Below the pieces are notes generated by a model. The model was not told where the DNA came from. It worked only from the letters and a program-made list of their open reading frames with translations, and made no database searches. A stretch of DNA of 64,000 bases from positions 720,692 through 784,691 of the forward strand of contig WELA01003449.1 of the NCBI GenBank assembly GCA_009602735.1, given 5' to 3'. This document shows, piece by piece, positions 1-11,165 of this stretch (position 1 is its first letter; every line of letters starts with the position of its first letter). The translations under genes were made by a program, and so were the position numbers. Source of the DNA: Mesotaenium endlicherianum (taxonomy: Eukaryota).

Positions 1-20
1 ACAGGTGGCAGCAGCTGTGC

Positions 21-3000
21 GTGGCCTCGGCCCGACGTCAGGCCCGCGCTGTCTCTCCCACAGCCCTGCAGGATGCGCGCCTGCGGTGGCGCACCCACCA
101 GGACCACGCACGGGGGGAGCGACCCCAGCCACTCACTGACCGCATCCCCAACCTTACGCGTGACTACGCAAACCGTGCTGTGGCCGCCCTCCGCATGGCG
201 CCACATCAGCACAGCGCCGAGCGTACCTTCCCGCCGCCCGCTCAGCCCGGCACCCCTGCCGTGGGGTGTCGCCCACTTCCGACTCCTATCTGCGCAGACG
301 CTCTGGACGAGCGACCTGGCGGCATCGTCCTCGTCGAGCTCTTTGCCGGCATCGCCACCGGGTTACTCGCGACCTTACAGGCCGGCATCCCGGTGCGCCG
401 CTACGTCTACGTCGATCCCGATCCAGAGGCCCAGCAGGTGGCCCGTCGACAGATGGCGTTGGGCCACGAGCGGTTCCCTGACCTCCAACCCGCGCACGCA
501 TTCCGCCGCGCTCAGACAGACTGGCCCATGGACATCCGCAACATCACCGTCGAGCATGTCACCCGACTTGGGCCCGTTGATCTCGTCATCGCCGGTTGGG
601 AGTGCCAGGGCTTCTCCAGAGCCGGGCGTGGCAGGGCGCTCAGCGATCCCCGCACGGCCCTCTTCTGGCACTTGCTCCGCGTCCTCAACATTGTTGAGGA
701 TCGCCAGCCGCCACACACACTCGCGTGGGTCCTGGAGAACGTGGCCGCGCGCCACGATCGCCGTCCCGATGTTAGCGCCGACTTCGCTCTTTGCAGCAGC
801 TACGTCGGCCGCGAGGCCGTCATCGACGCTGCCCAGATTGGTTCCTTCGCGCACCGCGTCCGCGCCTACTTCACAAACTTGGCGATGCCAGGTACTCTCG
901 AGGCGTTGGCCGCCTCTCATCCACGTCACACACGCACCGTCGACTCCATCCTCGATGCCCCTCGTCTGGCCCAGCGCGTGACGGCGCTGCCACATCCCTC
1001 CATGGCGCAGTGTGAGGTCCTGCATGACGTCACTCGCGCGCTGCCGACTTTTGTCAGCCGCTATGACAGCGACGCCTTCGTCGGAGATCAGCGAGGGATG
1101 GTCATCGACCTGGAGACTGGCATGTTTGACAAGCCACGCCCTGCAGAGATGGAGCGTGCCATGGGCTTTCTGCCGCATCTCACGCAGGTAGACGGTCTCA
1201 CTGAGGTGAACCGCATTCGCCTCTTGGGGCAGGCCATCGACGCCAACGTCCTCACGTGGATTCTGTTGCAGACGCAAGCCTTGGCGCCTCTCTATGCCGC
1301 AGCCCGGCATCCCGAGCTACCTCGGCCTGTCGATGATATGGACGATGACTCCACTGACGATGACAATCAGACCCCGCCAGGCACGACGTGGCATCCTCAA
1401 CGCGCAGGGCCGGCACCGCCAGAGCGCACCCGCCCCCCCTCCCCACCGCCGCGCGGGGAGGACTCTGGCTCGCTGGGGGGGGGCCGGCGGAGAGAGGAGT
1501 CCTCACAGCGACCCAGGGAGTCCCAGTCACCTTTTCTTTTTCCTCGCTCGCAGGCAGACGATTGCTCGCAGGCAGACGGTGCCAGGCAGCTGGCTGCAAC
1601 TGCCACAGTGCAGGTACCCGCGGCAGGCCAAGCGCCAACCGCTGCAGGGCAGGTGACACCTGCAGCACCACAGTCTATCCCAGCGGCAAATCAAGAGACT
1701 CCAGCTGCAGGTCAGGCGACGCCACCAGCTCCACCGACATGGAAGCTGGGGGGGACACTTACCAAGGCACAGGCCGCACAGTTGACGGCACTGCTGGATG
1801 GGAGGCGCAGCACCAGCTTTGCCAGCGGCATGCACGATCTCGGGCGCTACAGGGGGGACCCCATGCGGATTACTCTCTCGTCGCAGGAGCCCATTTTCCT
1901 GAAGCGTTATCGCTACAGCCACTTCGAGGATGGCTTGATCAGCGCGCAGACAGGCAAGCTGGAGGACAGCCGGCTCATTCGGGAGTCCTCCTCTCGTTAT
2001 GCCGCACCCACGGTCATGCCAGCCAAGAAGGATGCCTCGGGCAACTGGTCCGAGAAGAGGATGTGCGGTGACTATCGTAGGCTGAACGAGGTCACCGAGC
2101 AGGACAGATATCCTATGCCGACGCCTGACGAGATCTTTGACGACATTGGCACGTGCACTTGGTTCTCAGTGCTGGATCTGCGTCAGGGCTTCAACCAGAT
2201 TCCCATCGCCGAGGAGGACCAGCATAAGACGGCGTTCTGGGGAGCACAGCGGCTCTACGAGTGGGTGGTGATGCCGTTCGGGTTGAAGAACGCGCCAGCT
2301 ACCTTTCAGAGGGTGATGGATAAGGAGCTGGTCGGGCTGTCCTTTGCCCGATGCTACATCGATGACGTGCTCGTCTTCAGTCAGACGTTTGAGGAGCACG
2401 TGGTGCACATCACTACCGTCCTGGACCGCTTGGAGGCCGCTGGGCTCAAGTGCCATCCAGGCAAGTGCACCTTTGGGACCCGCGAGGTGGAGTACCTTGG
2501 CCACCTGCTCTCCTCCAGCGGCTTGGCACCCCAGCTGGCGAAGATCTCGGCCATCACAGGCATCCCACCTCCTACAGATCTCTCGCAGCTGCGGGCCTTC
2601 CTCGGCATCGCCAACTACTACCGCCGCTTCGTGCCAGGGTTCAGCGAGCTAGCCAAGCCGCTCAACGACTTGCTCCGCAAGGGCGTTGCCTACGTGTGGG
2701 GACCAGAGCAGCAGGCGGCATTCGATAAGCTCAAGGAGCTGCTGGTGAGCGCTCCTGTGCTTCGGCGTCCTGACTACGCGAAGCCCTTCATCCTCCACAC
2801 CGACTGGTCGCAGGCAGGGCTGGGCGCTGTGCTGGTGCAGGAGCATGACGGCTTCGAGCATGTGGTGGCCTACGCCAGCCGCAGCAACAACCGCGCGGAA
2901 GGCAACTACGGCTCCTACGAGGGGGAGTGCCTGGCAGCGGTCTGGGCGATCGTGCACTTCAGGCACTATCTCTACGGCACGCACTTCCGCCTGGTCACCG

Positions 3001-4835
3001 ACCATCAGCCACTTAAGTGGCTCATGACGTCGGAGCGCTTGACCGGCAAGTACGCACGGTGGGCGCTTATCTTGCAGGAGTACACCTTCGACGTGCACCA
3101 CCGTCCAGGCTCGACCAACCTGGACGCTGACGGTCTCAGCCGTAACCCGCTGCCCTCCTCGAGGGATCTCACTGTGGCTCGCCACGATGAGGATGAGCCG
3201 GTAGCCTGGCACGCGGCGGCCTTCCTGGCCTTCACCGTGGACGGCGATGTGCGGCCCGCAGGGCTCACTAGCCTGGACATGGTGACCGTCACCACTCGGC
3301 GATTGGCCCTGGCAGCGGCAGAGGATCAGGACAGCTGGCAGCGCGGTCCCGAGGACGTGTGGGACGACGCCCCAGTGCTGCAGTACGTCACGGCCAAGGA
3401 GTTGGCACCCGATGTCAGCGCACGCGAGCGCGACCGCATCCTCAGGCGCAGCCGCGACTTCATTTTCATGGAGGGGCGCGTGCGGCGCGTGATGGCGGAC
3501 GGCTCCGTCCTGGTGGTCCCTGAGCCTGCCATACGCAGTCAGCTGGTGCGCCGAGTGCACGAGTCCCTCGGGCACTTCGGTGTCAAGCGCACCCTCAGTC
3601 TTCTTCAGGCCGAGTACTGGTGGCACGGCATGACTAAGGTCGTCGCCGCTGTCGTCAGCAGCTGCACTCTCTGCGACCGTGTGCGCTCGAGCTTCACAGC
3701 GCGCACCGTTGCCCTCAGCCCCCTTCCTATTCAGGGGCTGTTCTACAGGTGGTCGCTTGACTTGGCTGGAGAGCTGCCCAAGTCTCGCCAGGGCAACCTC
3801 TACGTCTTGGTGATGATTGAGCACATGTCCAAGTGGATCGAGCTCGTGCCCTTGCCCAGCAAGGCCAGTGAGGGGATCGCTCAGGCCTTCCTCAATCAGG
3901 TCCTTAGCCGTTTTGGCGGCTGCGCTGAGGTGCTGACCGACCAGGGCAAGGAGTTCCAGGGCAGCTTTCAGAAGCTGCTGGAGCGCTCTATGATCGACCA
4001 CCGCACCACCTCCCGCGATCATCCTCAGGCTGACGGCCTCGCCGAGCGCATGGTGCAGACCGTCAAGCTAGGGTTGCGGAAGTACTGCCTTGCCCACGAC
4101 CGTACCCACTGGGACGACGCCCTCCCTTGGCTGGCGATGGGGTACAGGTTCAGTAAGCAGGCCTCCCTGGCCTCTCACTCTCCCTACTTCCTTCTCTACG
4201 GCCGACAGCCCATCCTGCCAGCAGCAGCCAGGACTGTGGCCGAGAACGTCTTGGACTTGGACAGTCCCGAGACATGGAGTGCTCTTATCGGGCAGCGTGC
4301 TCAGCTCTTTCGGCGCCTGATGCCCATGGCCATGGATAACCTCAGCATCGCACAGCATCGCGACACACTGAGGTACGCCATGACTCGTGGAGGAGCCTAT
4401 CATCCGCGGGTGTTGCAGTTTTCCGCAGGTGACTTCGTGTACCTGCGACGCCAGACGAAGAACACCCTCGACACCAGCAGCTCGCCGGTCATCCTGCGCG
4501 TCAAGCGTGCCTTGGCGTCAGGAGTCCTGGAGCTGGAAGGCGCAGATGGCCGTCTTCACAAGGACCACACGAAGAACTGTGGGCCGTGCCACCTTCCTAA
4601 CCTTGACTTGCAGGTCCGTCCCCGCGACGCGCGGCCGCCCAAGGACTGGGCGTGCCAGATCTGTCACAGCACTGGCCAGGAGGCCAAGATGCTGCTTTGC
4701 GACAGCTGCAACCTCGGCTTCCACATCGGCTGCCTCGACCCGCCGCTGGCCCGCGTGCCCGCTGACGACTGGTTCTGCGAAGACTGCACCGAGCTAGCCT
4801 TGAGCAGCGTACACAGCCCATCAGCTAGAGGCTGA
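21..4835 (+). CDS. Retrotransposon polyprotein: C5-cytosine DNA methyltransferase (~327-1280), Pro/Ala/Gln linker, reverse transcriptase, RNase H, HHCC + DDE integrase, PHD finger (~4650-4790); frame is open to the window edge, so 5'-partial
   Basis: DNMT motifs ELFAGIA (I), DIRNI (III), GWECQGFS (IV), LENV (VI), HRVRAYF (VIII), EMERAMGF (IX), LLGQAID (X); RT RMCGDYRRLN, MPFGLKNAP, YIDD; RNase H TDWS..GLGAVL, TDHQPL; INT HESLGH..CTLC, LTDQGKEF, QADGLAERM; PHD C4-H-C3 CQIC..LLCDSCNLGFHIGCL..WFCEDC. Confidence 0.95.
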   Translation: MASARRQARAVSPTALQDARLRWRTHQDHARGERPQPLTDRIPNLTRDYANRAVAALRMAPHQHSAERTFPPPAQPGTPAVGCRPLPTPICADALDERPGGIVLVELFAGIATGLLATLQAGIPVRRYVYVDPDPEAQQVARRQMALGHERFPDLQPAHAFRRAQTDWPMDIRNITVEHVTRLGPVDLVIAGWECQGFSRAGRGRALSDPRTALFWHLLRVLNIVEDRQPPHTLAWVLENVAARHDRRPDVSADFALCSSYVGREAVIDAAQIGSFAHRVRAYFTNLAMPGTLEALAASHPRHTRTVDSILDAPRLAQRVTALPHPSMAQCEVLHDVTRALPTFVSRYDSDAFVGDQRGMVIDLETGMFDKPRPAEMERAMGFLPHLTQVDGLTEVNRIRLLGQAIDANVLTWILLQTQALAPLYAAARHPELPRPVDDMDDDSTDDDNQTPPGTTWHPQRAGPAPPERTRPPSPPPRGEDSGSLGGGRRREESSQRPRESQSPFLFPRSQADDCSQADGARQLAATATVQVPAAGQAPTAAGQVTPAAPQSIPAANQETPAAGQATPPAPPTWKLGGTLTKAQAAQLTALLDGRRSTSFASGMHDLGRYRGDPMRITLSSQEPIFLKRYRYSHFEDGLISAQTGKLEDSRLIRESSSRYAAPTVMPAKKDASGNWSEKRMCGDYRRLNEVTEQDRYPMPTPDEIFDDIGTCTWFSVLDLRQGFNQIPIAEEDQHKTAFWGAQRLYEWVVMPFGLKNAPATFQRVMDKELVGLSFARCYIDDVLVFSQTFEEHVVHITTVLDRLEAAGLKCHPGKCTFGTREVEYLGHLLSSSGLAPQLAKISAITGIPPPTDLSQLRAFLGIANYYRRFVPGFSELAKPLNDLLRKGVAYVWGPEQQAAFDKLKELLVSAPVLRRPDYAKPFILHTDWSQAGLGAVLVQEHDGFEHVVAYASRSNNRAEGNYGSYEGECLAAVWAIVHFRHYLYGTHFRLVTDHQPLKWLMTSERLTGKYARWALILQEYTFDVHHRPGSTNLDADGLSRNPLPSSRDLTVARHDEDEPVAWHAAAFLAFTVDGDVRPAGLTSLDMVTVTTRRLALAAAEDQDSWQRGPEDVWDDAPVLQYVTAKELAPDVSARERDRILRRSRDFIFMEGRVRRVMADGSVLVVPEPAIRSQLVRRVHESLGHFGVKRTLSLLQAEYWWHGMTKVVAAVVSSCTLCDRVRSSFTARTVALSPLPIQGLFYRWSLDLAGELPKSRQGNLYVLVMIEHMSKWIELVPLPSKASEGIAQAFLNQVLSRFGGCAEVLTDQGKEFQGSFQKLLERSMIDHRTTSRDHPQADGLAERMVQTVKLGLRKYCLAHDRTHWDDALPWLAMGYRFSKQASLASHSPYFLLYGRQPILPAAARTVAENVLDLDSPETWSALIGQRAQLFRRLMPMAMDNLSIAQHRDTLRYAMTRGGAYHPRVLQFSAGDFVYLRRQTKNTLDTSSSPVILRVKRALASGVLELEGADGRLHKDHTKNCGPCHLPNLDLQVRPRDARPPKDWACQICHSTGQEAKMLLCDSCNLGFHIGCLDPPLARVPADDWFCEDCTELALSSVHSPSARG

Positions 4836-4850
4836 GAGTTGGGGGGGGAA
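4833..4850 (+). other. Polypurine tract (plus-strand priming site)
   Basis: TGAGAGTTGGGGGGGGAA overlapping and following the pol stop codon. Confidence 0.75.
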
Positions 4851-5049
4851 TTAAAACATTTGACGCTTGACTCCCTTTTTGGCTATAAAGCCATTCGTAT
4901 TATAGACTTCATTGCAACAAAGCCTGCTTGTCTATTGTGTGCTGCTTATGCCGACAAGGCGCACCCGATCTCTTAGCGCACGACACGAGGCAAACGTGCG
5001 GGTTCAGTGGTTTGAAAGCAGCTTCCTCACCATTCCTCTTGCCTTCACA
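4851..5049 (+). repeat. Putative short 3' LTR (~200 bp)
   Basis: Starts right after the PPT, has TATA-like CTATAAAG (~4883), ends in TCACA; 5' end reads TT rather than TG and the 5' LTR is not in the window. Confidence 0.45.
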
Positions 5050-5057
5050 AGGAAATG

Positions 5058-6012
5058 GGGAAATTACCAAAGTAGCACTCCAACTTTTGTTTATTCTACA
5101 AATAGCACTCCCAAGTGTCGTTATTTCAAAACTAGCACTCGCGCATGTAAGGCGAGTCCACGTAGGTTTTACACGATCAAATGACGTGCCACACGAATTT
5201 GCACGCGACCCAACCTGACACACCGCTTCTCTCTTTCGTTTCCAAAATCGACCACCACCACTTTTCCAGCTGCCCAATTTCACGAACCAAACTACCTAAG
5301 GACGCCCAAAAATTGGTCTACAGGTATTTTCGTGACCTATTTCTTGCGCCTTCATTTTCTAACCCTATATTTTCATGAGAGACTAAATTCATCGCATTCT
5401 CTGCTATTTCAGGTAGGAACGTAATTACAAGTAGCTAATTGTAGCGGTTGAGTCAAGTGGTTAGTTACTATGGCACATTGCCATTGAGGTTGCCTGTGGC
5501 TATCCTTTCCTATTTGTAAGCATGTTGCACCTATTTTAACTGCGCATCCATGGGAACATTCCTCACGTCCTACATTTAACCGCCACGTTTTACTTACATT
5601 TAGCCACCATAAGAAGTACCGAGTTGACCCGCCGAGGTTTAGACCCAGCTATGGAGTTCAAAAAGTAGTCTTCTATTTGGAGGCGCGGCAAAGTGGTCAA
5701 TGCCTTCAAAGAGTTTTGGAGAGTAAAAAGAAGGTAGCGACAATGTGTCCACCCGAAATTTGGCGTCCTTGGGCAGTTTGGATCGCGAAGGTGGGTCAGT
5801 TACAAAAGTGGTGGTGGAAGATTTTGGAAACGAAAGAGAGAAATGGTGTGTCGGGATGGGTCGCGTGCGAATTCGTGTGGCAAGTCATTGGATCATGTAA
5901 GGCCTACGTTGCCTGACCTTACATGCGCGAGTGCTAGTTTTGAAATAACAAAACTTGGAGTGCTAAATTTTGAAATAAACGAAAGTTGGAGTGCTACTTC
6001 TATAATTTGCCC
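5058..6012. mobile_element. Non-autonomous Mutator-like (MULE) element, 955 bp, ~260-bp imperfect TIRs
   Basis: Left end GGGAAATTACCAAAGTAGCACTCCAACTT vs reverse complement of right end GGGCAAATTATAGAAGTAGCACTCCAACTT; inverted similarity ~5058-5315 / ~5755-6012; perfect direct repeat CAAGGAAATG at 5048-5057 and 6013-6022; no transposase ORF. Confidence 0.88.
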
Positions 6013-7156
6013 CAAGGAAATGGCGAAAAACGCGATTTTTTGGCAATCAAATCGCGAAAAAGTGGATTTTGCAAAATGTTGTTGTTGGCAAAATAATCGA
6101 TTTAGATTGAGAGGTTGGGTTGCATTTGGGGGTGGCATCGTTTCAAATTCTGCCTACACTATTCACGTAAACTATCCACCTGACCTGTCGTGACAGTCGC
6201 TGCACACAGACGAGAAGTCGTCATTCGAAGTTGCTCGCGCTGGTAGCTGCTGGTAACCGTGCAGGATAGTACTCCTTTGAACCCAGCCCTGCAGCTTCAC
6301 GTGGCACCAACTGGCTTACTCTTATCTTATAAATGGCATATTTTAGGGGCCACTCATCCGGGCCAACTCTGATGAACAGCTGACGACTGTTGATTGTAGT
6401 TGATGGTGCACAATGTGCAGCATGCTTCAGAAAGGTTGCACGCAAATTCAGGATGCAAATGCTCATAAGCTACACCACATGGCAGTTGATTGCTCGGTTC
6501 CATATGAGCCGCAGAAATCCTTACAGCAGTAAGAATAGGAATGGCGCTTCATGGTGCTTTACGTGAGAGAGGCAGTCAGAGATCTGTGCGAACTTATTTT
6601 TCGAGACCAGCGCCCATGTGGCGAAGAAAGACGGAAGCATACCGAGACTGCTCAAGATCCAGCGCGTCTTTGGATAACCAGTTGAGCTTCTACATATTTG
6701 CAACCCTCCAATTCTCTTTTCATGTCTAATAAGAATGTGATATATTCTTAACAACTATAGGAAGCTCTTATTGTGTCCGCATTAGCTCCAATCCGTTTTA
6801 TAAATATTGCATTTTATAAGTAGAGTTCACTTGCTTTTATTTCTCCCATTTGGTGTCTTGTGACTCTTCTGGCATTCAGATATCAGAGCTACAAAAGCAA
6901 CACAACTACTATCCGCACGGCGTTCTAAAAGGGAAGAAGGAGAACTTTCTGGCTGTAGATTTATGTAGCTGAATTCGTGCATAATTGAGCACACGTATAA
7001 AAAGCAATCCATAAAAACGTTTCTGCAGCTGCCACGATCATGTAAGTAACATAACAGACTTCAGCAGCCAGACATGAAAAACACGCCTTGAGTAGATATT
7101 CAATCACTTTCCAGGTAGCCTGACGACCAGACACAAACATACGTAAACAGCAAGGC

Positions 7157-8167
7157 ATGGCAATGTTAGTCACAGGGCTACACATGCCTGGGCAACACTC
7201 CCTCATGTGTTGCCGACAAAATTTAAATTCTTTAATAGAGAAGGTGCATACTGAATCTCCAGTTCAACTGTCTGGCCTGCCTAGACATCGGAGGCTGTCT
7301 CGTCATAAACTAGTTTCAACGTCTAGCTGGAGGCCCGGGCACACGTTGCGTCAAAAAGGCGCACACCTCAGACATCTACACTCTGGCCAGATTGCCACTT
7401 CAAGATGCTCTCATCGACAGGCTGCTGCAGTTAGCAATCTCGAGGGCAAGGCGAATGCACACTCGTGGAAGCAGGCAGATAGTGCCGACCTGGGATACTC
7501 AGCTGTGGTGATACTGCTACACGGGCTGGGCAGCGACCCAACGGGCCTGCACACGCAGGCCTTCCGCGATCACATGAGGTGCAAGGAGCTGTCCCACGTG
7601 AAATGGGTCCACCCCCGGGCTCCTGTGCAGCCAGTGAGCGCCAATGATGGCAAGGAAATGCGCTCGTGGTTTGACGTGGCAGAGCTGCCAGCCTGCCCTG
7701 AGGCGCCGCCCATTCCCAGCCCGGAGGACCAGGTAATGGGTGCTGTCGAGACGGTGCATAGCATCATAGAGGACGAGGTGGGGAGGGGGATCAAGGCCAG
7801 CCGGGTCCTGGTGGGGGGATTCTCTCAGGGGGGCGCAACAGCTGTCAGCAGCGTGGCTACTTACCCTGAGCCCTTGGCTGGGGCGGCAATCATGTGGGGC
7901 TGGGTGCCACTTGAGCCAAGGGTTTTCTCGGAGAAGGTGGAGGAGGCTGCCAAGTCAACGCCTGTTCTCTGGAGCCACGGGGAGCAGGATTCGACAGTGA
8001 GCATTGGGGCAGGAAAGAAAGGGGCGGACCTGCTGAGCGAGAATGGGATGGATGTTGAGATGAAGGCACATTCGCAAGCAGGGCACAAGCCGCACAAGGA
8101 TGAGCTGGAGCTCATCAAGGGTTGGATCTTAGAGCGTCTTCCTCAGGACAATTACCCAGACAACTAA
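7157..8167 (+). CDS. Phospholipase/carboxylesterase (acyl-protein thioesterase, APT/LYPLA/SOBER1-like) with probable organellar transit peptide; single coding exon
   Basis: LLHGLG, PVS.N.G..MRSWFD, GGFSQGG nucleophile, HGEQDSTV (Asp), AGH (His); Ser/Arg-rich N-terminal ~110 aa. Confidence 0.9.
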   Translation: MAMLVTGLHMPGQHSLMCCRQNLNSLIEKVHTESPVQLSGLPRHRRLSRHKLVSTSSWRPGHTLRQKGAHLRHLHSGQIATSRCSHRQAAAVSNLEGKANAHSWKQADSADLGYSAVVILLHGLGSDPTGLHTQAFRDHMRCKELSHVKWVHPRAPVQPVSANDGKEMRSWFDVAELPACPEAPPIPSPEDQVMGAVETVHSIIEDEVGRGIKASRVLVGGFSQGGATAVSSVATYPEPLAGAAIMWGWVPLEPRVFSEKVEEAAKSTPVLWSHGEQDSTVSIGAGKKGADLLSENGMDVEMKAHSQAGHKPHKDELELIKGWILERLPQDNYPDN

Positions 8168-11165
8168 GGATGGACTAAGGAGCAGGAACTGCGTATTTAG
8201 GGCCTTCTAATCTATATGTGTACAGTGAGCTTTGATTATACGTTCTATAGAAGTGAACCCACCTAAATCAGGCCTCCTTTGCTGCCATATCGCTTGGGCT
8301 AATGGGGGGCCTGCTCCTCCTTCCTGCACGAGAAAATAGCTGCACTGCCCTTGTGACGTTGCGTGACTCTCCTGTGACATACTCCACTAGCTTGTATGGA
8401 TGCTTATGCCGCTTATCTTGATAGTGATATCATGTGGTGCTTTGTGAGCCCTGGTTTAGCCCAAGTTGCAACTCTGAAGCACTTTCGGGATGTACCCTTA
8501 ATATCAGTACATGCATGCCAAGAGGCACTGGCCTTACACTAGTCGGACGTTTTGTGAAGTTCATTTCTGTGCAGAGAGCCCTTTGCTGTGCACTATATGT
8601 TCTAAGGGGATGAAGTCAATAGCTCTGGTTACAAAGACATTGTGACAAACTTTGGGAATCCTTGAAATTGTATAACATCTTTAGAGGAACATGCCAAGTT
8701 AATGTAGGCTCTTTAGTGATGAGATGCACGAAGATTTCACTGGATGTCAGAGATCTGCCCCGAGGAGAGACAAGTCCCATTGCAGTACGATATGATATAT
8801 CAAACATTAGTTTGGCACTAAAATACAAAGTGGCTGAAGAGCAGACGAAATCTCAATGAGAAGAAGCAGCAACTTTGCAGACTGCTCTTTTGTGTGAGAG
8901 CTAGCATACCTTTCTTATCTGGCTTATTACATGTTCAGTTGACGAGGGCATTACCCAGATTCAGCTTGCAACAGCATGTCTTTGTGGGCCGCGCCCGAGC
9001 ACAGAGGAATGTGGAGGAATGTGGTATGCATGGAGACTCACTTGAAGAAGGCTCAAGCTACCTCCTTGGACAGACTGCCGTGTTGCCATGCTGCAGATCT
9101 CTGTGTTACCGAGACACGCTAGAACCTCATGAGCCCAGGTGTTCTGCACAACCCCCGGCAGAGGTGGTAGGTTTCACCCCCCCCAGCCATCACCTCAACC
9201 ACACATATAACGTAGAGTATCTTCAATAGAACTCGGCAGTGGGGTGCGAGAACAGTTTTTGAATCCGTTCGGTTGCTGTTGCTGTTTTAAGTCATAAACT
9301 GGTTCTTAACAGACTTCACAAGTGTGAGAAGTTAGTCATTTGTTTAGGAGAATCCTGAACGGTGGGGTGAGGCTAAGGTATGATGTGGGTTGCCCTTCTT
9401 ACCCGCTTACCAGGCTGCGTTGCTGTGATTGAAAAGCTGAATTATTTCACGGTTCACATTCAACCATATTGGTCACATTGTAAGATGTTCTGGCCAGCGA
9501 TGATGAACCCATACCTTAGAACCCTGAACTATTCTCAGGCAAATATACATCAACACTCCTGCATAGATCAGAAGAGCCCGAGGTTGAATATGTGGAAGGG
9601 TCTTGTGCCGGAAATGATTGACGTCAACTGCAAGGTGAGCTGTAGCTGAATGCTAATGCAAGGAGCGCAAAAGCACAAAGAAACAAGTATAACTCAGCTT
9701 AATATGCTATGGGAAACGAGGAATAGCTACCACTTAGCAATAACCATCAGGGTCAAAGTTTGTCAAAGCAAAATTGTTAATCTTATTCACCAGCAATAGT
9801 ACGCATGTTGGTGCTTTGCACAGAAGTGGCGGTGCTGTTTTAGCGATTCCTCTCTTCTATTACTGAACCTAGCCGGCTACGTACTCCTGCAGTTTGCTAG
9901 TGCAATAAGTATTCAACTCACTCATACAGCAGTGCTCTTCACAGATACTAGCCTCCTCGCAGAAGCTACAGTGGACCAGCTTGATTTTATAACTTCTGCG
10001 GCCTTAAAAGAATGAAAGCACAGTGCGACAAAAATGGTGACTGGGAAGTCGTAAGGCAGCAAGCTCACAATAAACTTTGTCTACTTGATGCAGGGGATCT
10101 CCTTTCACAATATCACACAGCAGTCCTTCATCACAGCACTTCCCTCATCACACGTCTGCGTGCCATTGTTTGCTATTTCACTTGTCAGTGGGAGCCAAGC
10201 AGGGTGGTTAAACAATAATTGTGAACGAAAGGAGAATATGCACCAGATAAAGCAACTGGCTTTGCTGTAAATTTAAAGCATATCTGTGCCCCACATGAAC
10301 ATGTATGCACGAAGGCAACCTCGTTAACATTTGGAGAGGAAAACAACCTGCAGCTTCGTGCATCCGTGACAAGCTTCAGAACGATATGTTATATTCGGTG
10401 ACTTGCATTTACTTTTGCCTGCCAGCTCACACTAAAACCCGACATGCGACATCATTTAAATGACATGGTACCCCCTGCTCCCAATAAAACAAGTGCCAAC
10501 GGTTTCTCTCAATTGTCTCAAGAGCATTTTCGACATTACAACTCTTCCGTGCGAGAGTGACACAAGGAAGAAATATTTGTCATTGCAAAGCGACATTGAA
10601 AGATCTTTCTATACTAATCTATACATATTGTCCTGCTGCATACAAACAGAAACTGCAGCCGTCGTATGCGCTGGGCTCCGGCAACACTTAAAGACCGTCC
10701 CAGATTTTGGTTCTTCACTTGCATAAACGAGAGTTATAAAATCTTTCCCAAGCTTGTCAAGACGTTCAGACCACTCTCTTGGACGTAGACGACTAAACAA
10801 GAGGAAACCAATTGCTACGATGCCAGTGCGACTAAGTCGTGAACAAGTCTCAGTTTGTCCATGAACTCCCCAACAATGGGTCTCTCTACATCCCCCTGAC
10901 CACAGAACAGGCACCCTGCCTATCTCTGTCTCTTCTCTGGAGTCTGGACACGTCTGAACTATTTTTTTACTTCTGGATTCCTTCGCGTCGACTCTGCAAT
11001 TGGAATCGCGGGACTACATGAGTAAGTTCAGCTACGCATCCTCGTGAGTTCCACCATGGAAAAAAATTATTGCGTCCGTGCACGTCCGTGAAGCAGTATT
11101 TGTAAGACGAGTCGTTACTAAAGTGCACTACTAGCAGTGTTGCATCTCGTCAGGAGCAAGTCACC

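Follow-up and report, generated by a model that had tools for sequence, protein, structure and literature searches.

At its left edge, a 64,000-nucleotide stretch of the Mesotaenium endlicherianum genome (GenBank assembly GCA_009602735.1, contig WELA01003449.1, positions 720,692 to 784,691 of the forward strand; hereafter the window) carries a retrotransposon whose polyprotein joins a DNMT3-like C5-cytosine methyltransferase (DNMT) to reverse transcriptase (RT), RNase H, a DDE integrase, and a PHD finger. In Mesotaenium the element is a high-copy Ty3/Gypsy-like retrotransposon copy; it is an intact copy of a known, little-studied kind in a new host class, and its design has already been published. 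On balance, the DNMT probably marks CG sites on the element's own new complementary DNA (cDNA) before insertion. A fuller reading, which we hold only tentatively, is that the element belongs to an old, undescribed lineage across green plants (chlorophytes and zygnematophytes) that would have lost the usual LTR termini, and in which the DDE integrase would open a cDNA circle at a conserved palindrome after its methylation by a packaged Glu-Cys DNMT3 that was relocated once within Pol. The features that go beyond the published design (the Glu-Cys site, the chlorophyte relatives with a moved domain, and the junction with its target duplications) come mostly from relatives.

Domain architecture of the Mesotaenium element

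A stop-free frame (+3) runs through window positions 3..4835 (1610 amino acids, aa), open at its 5' end at the window edge and closed by TGA at 4833-4835. Pfam matches follow in the order DNA_methylase, RVT_1, RT_RNaseH, Integrase_H2C2, rve, and PHD, all over the curated cut-offs; DNA_methylase scores 31.9 bits (cut-off 22; E 1.2e-7). The preliminary description, made from the letters alone, had proposed an in-frame DNMT upstream of RT, RNase H, integrase, and PHD, and had named a DNA_methylase profile match as the check: the single open frame and the Pfam matches agree with it on both counts. Its set of DNMT motifs (I, III, IV, VI, VIII, IX, and X) can all be read directly, together with motif II, and motif IV holds a Glu-Cys pair that had not been flagged. 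The frame from which it took the element's span is real, but opens at 3, so that its starting position, 21, is internal.

Features of the element (window positions, strand):
3..4835, +, Pol (or Gag-Pol) frame, 1610 aa
315..1292, +, DNMT3-like C5 cytosine methyltransferase domain (Pfam, PDB sequence matches, motifs, structure model)
330, +, DNMT motif I, ELFAGIATG (read directly)
411, +, DNMT motif II, YVDPD (read directly)
531, +, DNMT motif III, DIRNI (read directly)
594, +, DNMT motif IV, GWECQG (read directly); Glu codon 600-602, catalytic Cys codon 603-605
729, +, DNMT motif VI, LENV (read directly); ENV Glu at 735
852, +, DNMT motif VIII, HRVRAY (read directly); RxR inside 852-869
1146, +, DNMT motif IX, EMERAMG (read directly)
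1221, +, DNMT motif X, LLGQAID (read directly)
1293..1740, +, linker, Pro/Ala/Gln-rich, low-complexity, in frame (sequence)
2049..2504, +, RT core, YIDD at 2355 (RVT_1, E 5e-31)
2697..3083, +, RNase H (RT_RNaseH, E 6e-37)
3525..4025, +, integrase; H2C2 zinc finger 3525-3689, DDE core 3744-4025
4653..4787, +, C-terminal PHD finger (PHD, E 7e-11)
4841..4848, +, G8 polypurine tract abutting repeat B (sequence)
4849..4985, +, terminal repeat B, 137 bp, right end of the element, last letters GCACGACA (depth drop, loose ends)

The Gypsy domain set of RT, RNase H, and DDE integrase is thus present in that order, with the integrase motifs DLAG (3759), TDQG (3936), and GLAERM (4035) read directly, and the intronless DNMT lies within the same open reading frame (ORF) as RT and RNase H. 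Pfam matches of the 1610-aa frame include no tyrosine recombinase family, with rve and H2C2 present instead, and no DAM or chromodomain in this available part of the protein, the 5' part lying outside the window. The gag, protease, and 5' repeat of this copy fall upstream of the window. In full-length relatives, among them the proteins P0011 and P0009 and also metagenome loci, a Gag(zf-CCHC)-protease part precedes the DNMT; the 104 aa preceding the window DNMT have no match in P0011. Repeat B ends at position 4985, and unrelated DNA follows it.

The methyltransferase domain

The active-enzyme signature (motif I, catalytic Cys, ENV, RxR, and motifs IX and X) is complete in the window domain. 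In C5 methyltransferases proline normally precedes the catalytic cysteine of motif IV; the window domain does not keep this Pro-Cys dipeptide and has Glu-Cys instead. A PDB sequence search ranks DNMT3C/3A/3B best (E 2e-15), well ahead of DRM2, DNMT2, and M.HhaI (1e-3), and a profile comparison keeps DNMT3 ahead (93 vs 46 bits). An AlphaFold model of the domain, built on an 11-row alignment, has a pLDDT of 89 and a pTM of 0.90, and among the 35 Foldseek matches listed for it only DNMT3A/3B/3C occur (TM 0.63-0.73 by query length). The best matches to phage proteins reach 22-30% identity and at most 79 bits; a bacterial or phage origin of the domain appears disfavoured on these sequence comparisons. 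By Pfam the domain lacks DUF3444, which host DNMT3 proteins of streptophytes carry, as described in the accessible text of PMC6453930.

Copy number and state of the window copy

The gene adjoining the element (222 aa) is 100% identical to the EukProt protein jgi/Mesen1 ME000422S07125 of M. endlicherianum. In one public DNA run (X4), contig depth sums to 24,000-116,000 across positions 1-4800, DNMT and linker included, a sum that is inflated by overlapping short contigs and is not a copy number; one contig of the same run equals 6155-9000 without any difference at a depth of 45. From this run we estimate a family of tens of copies or more, probably hundreds. The linker varies in length between copies, with joints that skip 39, 100, and 117 nt in run X4. 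In a second run (X1) the element assembles at a depth of ~12-24 (DNMT 12, RT 15-24) and the flank is without cover; one contig spans the whole DNMT with 26 differences per 1265 bases and reaches 575 bases past the window start, and there is a coverage hole at 1266-1810. Across the public DNA runs the window copy is ~1-2% diverged from other copies, and the element is also present in runs under four other organism labels.

The preliminary description had called this a young, possibly active family on the strength of its intact ORF. The ORF is indeed intact, but activity of this copy is not supported: transcripts, decay, and end structure all speak against it. Two polyA RNA runs were used, both from one study and with the species label of X4, of which 6% and 12% were read. 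At 90% likeness no read of either falls across bases 1-3300; those 3' of base 3300 are few, divergent, or stem from a 41-nt piece of another transcript. In the same runs bin depths of the neighbouring gene reach 14 and 32, on one strand. The 41-nt piece corresponds to integrase positions 3607-3647 and lies, apparently in tandem, inside an unrelated expressed transcript; both RNA runs show loose ends to either side of it.

Decay was assessed on a small, selected sample, 30 of the best-supported differences between the window and the runs, with 245 further rows outside it. In half of them (15/30) the window has lost a C to T or a G to A; with one double change excluded, 12 of 14 such losses stand in CG or CHG context against an expected 52% (p 0.011). 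C-to-T decay in these contexts fits a host-methylated copy, and the window copy is probably both silent and host-methylated. It also ends at the right in a single terminal repeat (B) rather than in the arrangement B-A-B, which likewise argues against an active copy.

Terminal repeats, junction, and target duplications

Relatives of the element are bounded not by two full, identical long terminal repeats (LTRs) but by repeat A at the left and by B-A-B or B at the right. The clearest case is locus L075, in which A (1679-2017) is followed by the ORFs, a purine tract, B (10238-10350), GC, A (10353-10691), and B (10693-10805), with AAGG on both sides of the element; the right ends of L004 and L057 are laid out in the same way. 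As in the window, a purine tract directly precedes B in L004, L012, L028, L052, L057, and L075. The junction CACGACA-GC-TGTCATG, allowing at most 2 mismatches, occurs downstream of pol in 15 of 82 loci, many of which end before the junction position (6 of the window's domain order, 9 of the other), and in none of 5 shuffles of the locus set. These 15 derive from 18 approximate matches, those of L015:6803, L016, and L067 lying inside coding sequence and being left out. Four elements have both ends, and the 4-bp target duplication is exact in three and has one mismatch in the fourth. Left ends are always A alone (11/11, 9 distinct sites).

Three traits are those of canonical LTR elements, namely the polypurine tract before the right repeat, the TG..CA termini, the window element ending in CA at 4985, and, in the relatives, the short target duplication. 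No TGG-led primer-binding site was seen directly after A in L075 or L004, no comparison with a tRNA set being made, and a tRNA gene search of the window returned none. The window has no repeat pair of at least 40 bp at the element's end, and repeat B folds no better than its shuffles (z -0.25).

Loose ends in the DNA runs connect the window family to this arrangement. Other copies continue past B with GC plus TGTCATG, the start of repeat A. In run X1 the continuation reads GCTGTCATG; the X4 consensus past B is near-identical to GCTGTCATG, with low agreement. Loose ends also place B behind a second conserved sequence, the end of A, in X4, X8, X10, and X24. The window family would thus have B-A-B, and the window copy B alone, like L012, L028, and L052; the single B in the window may be an assembly collapse at the locus.

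Relatives and the two domain orders

The fusion is not a one-off, as the preliminary description had allowed that it might be: DNA runs show many copies of the element, and both Closterium and chlorophytes have fused relatives. A protein search restricted to 885-2818 aa gave 15 matches. Besides the window, DNMT-before-RT fusions are found in P0001, P0008/P0034, P0011, P0096, and Closterium proteins. A second order, RT-RNase H-DNMT-integrase-PHD, is found in Tetradesmus deserticola (P0010/P0035) and in the loci L013, L019, L023, L024, L033, L036, L049, and others, with intact ORFs of up to 3600 aa; DNMT proteins of Chromochloris and Cymbomonas group with it in the tree, with no RT in the same protein. 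L028 is an internally deleted element of this order. A metagenome scan confirmed 155 of 432 stretches, of which 80 were kept; at least 12 pairs overlap and represent the same locus. PHD is also present in 53 of 75 relatives with an integrase match, and of 10 members examined near the window's clade, 7 bear a name or label, 6 of them Closterium. None of the proteins retrieved bears a Klebsormidium nitens label. These sequence comparisons indicate that relatives are many and reach the chlorophytes, so that the family is much wider than reported.

A profile search gave 534 representatives at E 1e-30 or better. Among the best 150, DNMT lies after RNase H in 72, before RT in 6, with integrase only in 20, and with none of these in 52. 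Motif IV in the same 150 reads EC in 86, PC in 49, SC in 5, DC in 4, and CC in 1 (5 unparsed), shares that are biased because the search profile itself is 6/11 EC.

Maximum-likelihood trees of 24 proteins (6/6 of the window's order and 18/51 of the other; unrooted, without outgroups) part the two domain orders at 100/99 for both DNMT and RT-RNase H, which fits one lineage in which the DNMT was relocated once. Glu-Cys and Pro-Cys forms are mixed within both orders, which suggests that the two are interchangeable. In 38 stop-free Glu-Cys sequences, the catalytic Cys and the Glu and Asn of ENV are each kept in 38/38, and the two RxR arginines, the motif I Phe, and the motif I Gly in 36 each. The ratio of nonsynonymous to synonymous substitution rates (dN/dS) of the DNMT could be measured for 4 of 7 Glu-Cys pairs (0.06-0.31) and for 5 of 6 Pro-Cys pairs (0.07-0.19), and is saturated in the remainder; RT, RNase H, and integrase of the relatives give 0.01-0.14, and in nearly all pairs measurable for both the DNMT evolves quicker than RT and integrase. 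Conserved catalytic residues and low dN/dS point to Glu-Cys as an old, selected variant rather than decay of the window copy.

Pro-Cys elements of the window's order share a further feature: in 12/12 (L001, L003, L004, L006, L007, L010, L011, L012, L021, L034, L046, and L081) an in-frame stop separates Gag-protease-DNMT from RT, a stop that the window element lacks. CAR comes next in 11, and the full TAG-CAR-YYA, which we take to be a leaky-stop context, is present in 5. From this arrangement, DNMT would be made at Gag level in these elements, and RT by read-through. In L074 (3-3698) the ORF upstream of the DNMT3-bearing Pol has a middle domain like that of the histone chaperone Rtt106 (PF08512, E 6e-15), possibly a further captured chromatin module. 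The second-order contig L023 has a 3.5-kb identical direct duplication (1-3498 and 6557-10057), either tandem copies or an assembly loop.

Prokaryotic and viral sequences were also searched. A single-domain search confirmed 0 of 4 stretches in viral contigs and 0 of 146 in genome contigs, and an alignment-based search of genome contigs gave 2 loci (L081 and L082), binned in a cyanobacterial and a Minisyncoccia assembly. Because both are complete retroelement contigs inside eukaryotic tree clades, they are probably eukaryotic contamination, that is, mis-binned DNA and not bacterial donors. Of 23 ORFs in the flanks of degenerate, low-GC metagenome loci, one matches PIF1 and one PGG.

Comparison with known elements

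The comparisons below follow the accessible part of each source. The preliminary description had pointed to a published precedent, and the architecture is indeed of the kind reported as KnitGypsy-Dnmt3 in Klebsormidium nitens, a DNMT3 in Gypsy Pol with DIRS-like repeats and a Ka/Ks below 0.2 (de Mendoza et al., 2018; PMC5890265). That description was right about the precedent; in calling the architecture rare, it understated its spread, with many relatives, chlorophyte ones included. The new host lineage that it suggested holds at the level of species and class (Mesotaenium, Zygnematophyceae), but this host is still a streptophyte alga, like Klebsormidium.

Both KnitGypsy-Dnmt3 and the Mesotaenium element have an intronless DNMT3-related domain in a Gypsy Pol ORF of a streptophyte alga; KnitGypsy-Dnmt3 also has DIRS-like split repeats (Fig. 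4c legend of PMC5890265) and purifying selection on the DNMT, which here are read in relatives. The two differ in host, which for the window is a zygnematophyte, and in copy number, which looks far higher here, the K. nitens total being 33 DNA_methylase genes (Supplementary Data 1 of PMC5890265). The text of that paper gives no domain order, PHD, Glu-Cys, junction palindrome, target duplications, or chlorophyte relatives for KnitGypsy-Dnmt3; some of these, such as the domain order or the motif IV variant, may already be present in its Fig. 4c and Supplementary Fig. 13a. The activity of the Gypsy-borne DNMT3 and the reason for the DIRS-like repeats were left open there.

SymbioDIRS-Dnmt3 of Symbiodinium (PMC5890265) likewise has DNMT3 in Pol by RT/RNase H, two domain orders, the layout A-ORF-B-A-B that is read here in relatives, and no CpG depletion; unlike the window element, with its DDE integrase and its relatives with 4-bp target duplications, it has a tyrosine recombinase in a separate ORF, and its domains have been shown to be active. 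EpiLTRs of Cymbomonas tetramitiformis and Euglena gracilis (bioRxiv 10.64898/2026.05.21.726589) also combine an LTR retrotransposon with a cytosine methyltransferase and a chromatin reader, but their DNMT is sister to DNMT4, they carry a DAM adenine methyltransferase and a chromodomain, and the source sets them apart from streptophyte Gypsy-DNMT3. Gypsy-7a_cRei of Chlamydomonas reinhardtii (bioRxiv 10.1101/2022.06.16.496473) is a green-algal Gypsy with PHD in Gag-Pol; it differs in its paired LTRs, and a methyltransferase is not among its listed domains. The DDE integrase of foamy virus cleaves a palindromic two-LTR circle junction to give 3'-processed ends (PMC1180852); there the cut at the LTR-LTR junction restores ordinary LTR ends, whereas the cut proposed here would lie within the repeat unit and give permuted repeats.

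Gypsy-DNMT3 elements have been placed in streptophytes only (bioRxiv 10.64898/2026.05.21.726589; PMC12344493). A literature search, which covered few subscription papers and not Repbase, found no paper joining Mesotaenium, DNMT3, and retrotransposon, KnitGypsy in one paper only, and nothing that describes Gypsy-DNMT3 from a chlorophyte or a DDE integrase combined with split repeats.

Proposed mechanism and alternatives

Split repeats, the palindromic junction, and the 4-bp duplications together suggest that the integrase opens a DNA circle. In this scheme the polyprotein would be packaged with its RNA, so that the DNMT would act in cis on double-stranded cDNA, a mode proposed for element-borne DNMTs by de Mendoza et al. 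(PMC5890265). Methylation would probably be at CG, by analogy with the SymbioDIRS-Dnmt3 domains, which according to the same text methylate CG de novo in yeast. Given its place behind the purine tract, the B-GC-A unit would serve as the LTR, and cDNA with B-GC-A at each end would close into a circle. A 2-nt staggered cut by the integrase at the palindrome CACGACA/GC/TGTCATG would then leave two CA-3' ends. After insertion a two-repeat circle would yield A-ORF-B-A-B. The form A-ORF-B of the window copy would come from a one-repeat circle or from subsequent recombination of B with B. The PHD finger may read histone H3 tails at the target.

Several observations weigh against this proposal. Random cutting of a two-repeat circle predicts A-B-A left ends, seen in 0/11 (9 distinct sites), and the B-A-B of the window family is read from loose ends of at most 30 letters, not from a whole copy. 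No record bridging DNMT to RT is among the run records listed. All Glu-Cys pairs with a dN/dS are of the other domain order, with 0 from the window's family; the window DNMT has a long terminal branch in the tree (1.16 vs a median of 0.6), and a literature search on the proline that is changed to Glu in motif IV turned up no paper. The element as a whole has a CpG observed/expected of 0.88 and its DNMT part one of 1.05, against 0.51-0.64 in the host flanks, so that repeated self-methylation has left no footprint. The Gypsy-borne DNMT of K. nitens produced no methylation in yeast, a result called inconclusive by its authors, human DNMT3B having failed too (PMC5890265).

The invariant left ends are what a fixed template predicts, and 4-bp duplications and TG..CA termini such as these are left by an ordinary integrase. 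Split repeats could accordingly arise without a circle, an internal B-GC-A templating both ends of a linear cDNA that is then 3'-processed, with the DNMT part of the proposal unchanged. We regard this as a real possibility, if short of probable: the self-complementary 2-nt spacer, conserved in both domain orders, suits one staggered cut exactly, and copies in which purine tract, B, and flank adjoin (L012, L028, L052, and the window) are expected from a one-repeat circle.

Somewhat less likely is a weak or chemically altered Glu-Cys enzyme whose main role would be the binding or shielding of cDNA, or the covalent trapping of cytosine, rather than the setting of a methylation pattern. The glutamate beside the catalytic Cys, the inactivity of the K. 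nitens domain in yeast (PMC5890265), the lack of CpG depletion, the faster evolution of the DNMT than of RT and integrase, and the long branch of the window domain would all suit such a protein. Retention of motif I, Cys, ENV, and RxR in 36-38 of the 38 Glu-Cys sequences, the intermixing of both motif IV forms in each domain order, and dN/dS far under 1 speak for an enzyme.

An improbable alternative is that the DNMT is active but works chiefly in trans or at the target site, altering host chromatin round the insertion under the guidance of the PHD finger on the integrase. DNMT and PHD do share one polyprotein, the DNMT stands after RNase H and directly before integrase in the 72 of the best 150 relatives noted above, and the Pro-Cys relatives of the window's order end ORF1 with DNMT, at Gag-like levels (12/12 loci). 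Both RNA runs examined show the family silent, however, the methylome of K. nitens is of the ordinary plant-like kind (PMC5890265), and, by general retroelement biology, a processed polyprotein first meets its own cDNA. A one-off chimera or misassembly of a host DNMT3 with an ordinary Gypsy can be dismissed as very implausible: the window does open within the element, N gaps occur in other parts of the assembly (964 N), and no run record spans the whole stretch, but in two DNA runs the DNMT equals RT in repetitiveness, with the linker at high depth in X4, the identical in-frame order recurs in independent proteins of other organisms, and the domain is intronless and without the DUF3444 of host streptophyte DNMT3 (PMC6453930).

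Other features of the window

A miniature inverted-repeat transposable element (MITE)-like element at 5059-6012, presumably Mutator-like, has terminal inverted repeats of 255 bp (84%) and is flanked by an 11-bp duplication (5048-5058 and 6013-6023); it is repetitive in X4, one contig of which skips it. A single-exon gene for a phospholipase/carboxylesterase (acyl-protein thioesterase-like) lies at 7124-8167 (+), the thioesterase itself at 7499-8164; it is the neighbouring gene that identified the host, and is expressed in both RNA runs.

Implications for green-plant retrotransposons

A high-copy intact family in a cultured zygnematophyte, together with dozens of intact relatives, offers many more domains for assay, and the natural Glu-Cys and Pro-Cys pairs and the defined junction sequence are test material for DNMT and integrase. 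If circle cutting and cDNA methylation are true, these elements would follow a retrotransposon route between those of DIRS and LTR elements, and would represent a mobile element that writes its own epigenetic mark. The capture of DNMT3 would then shift toward the root of green plants, or horizontal spread would be implied.

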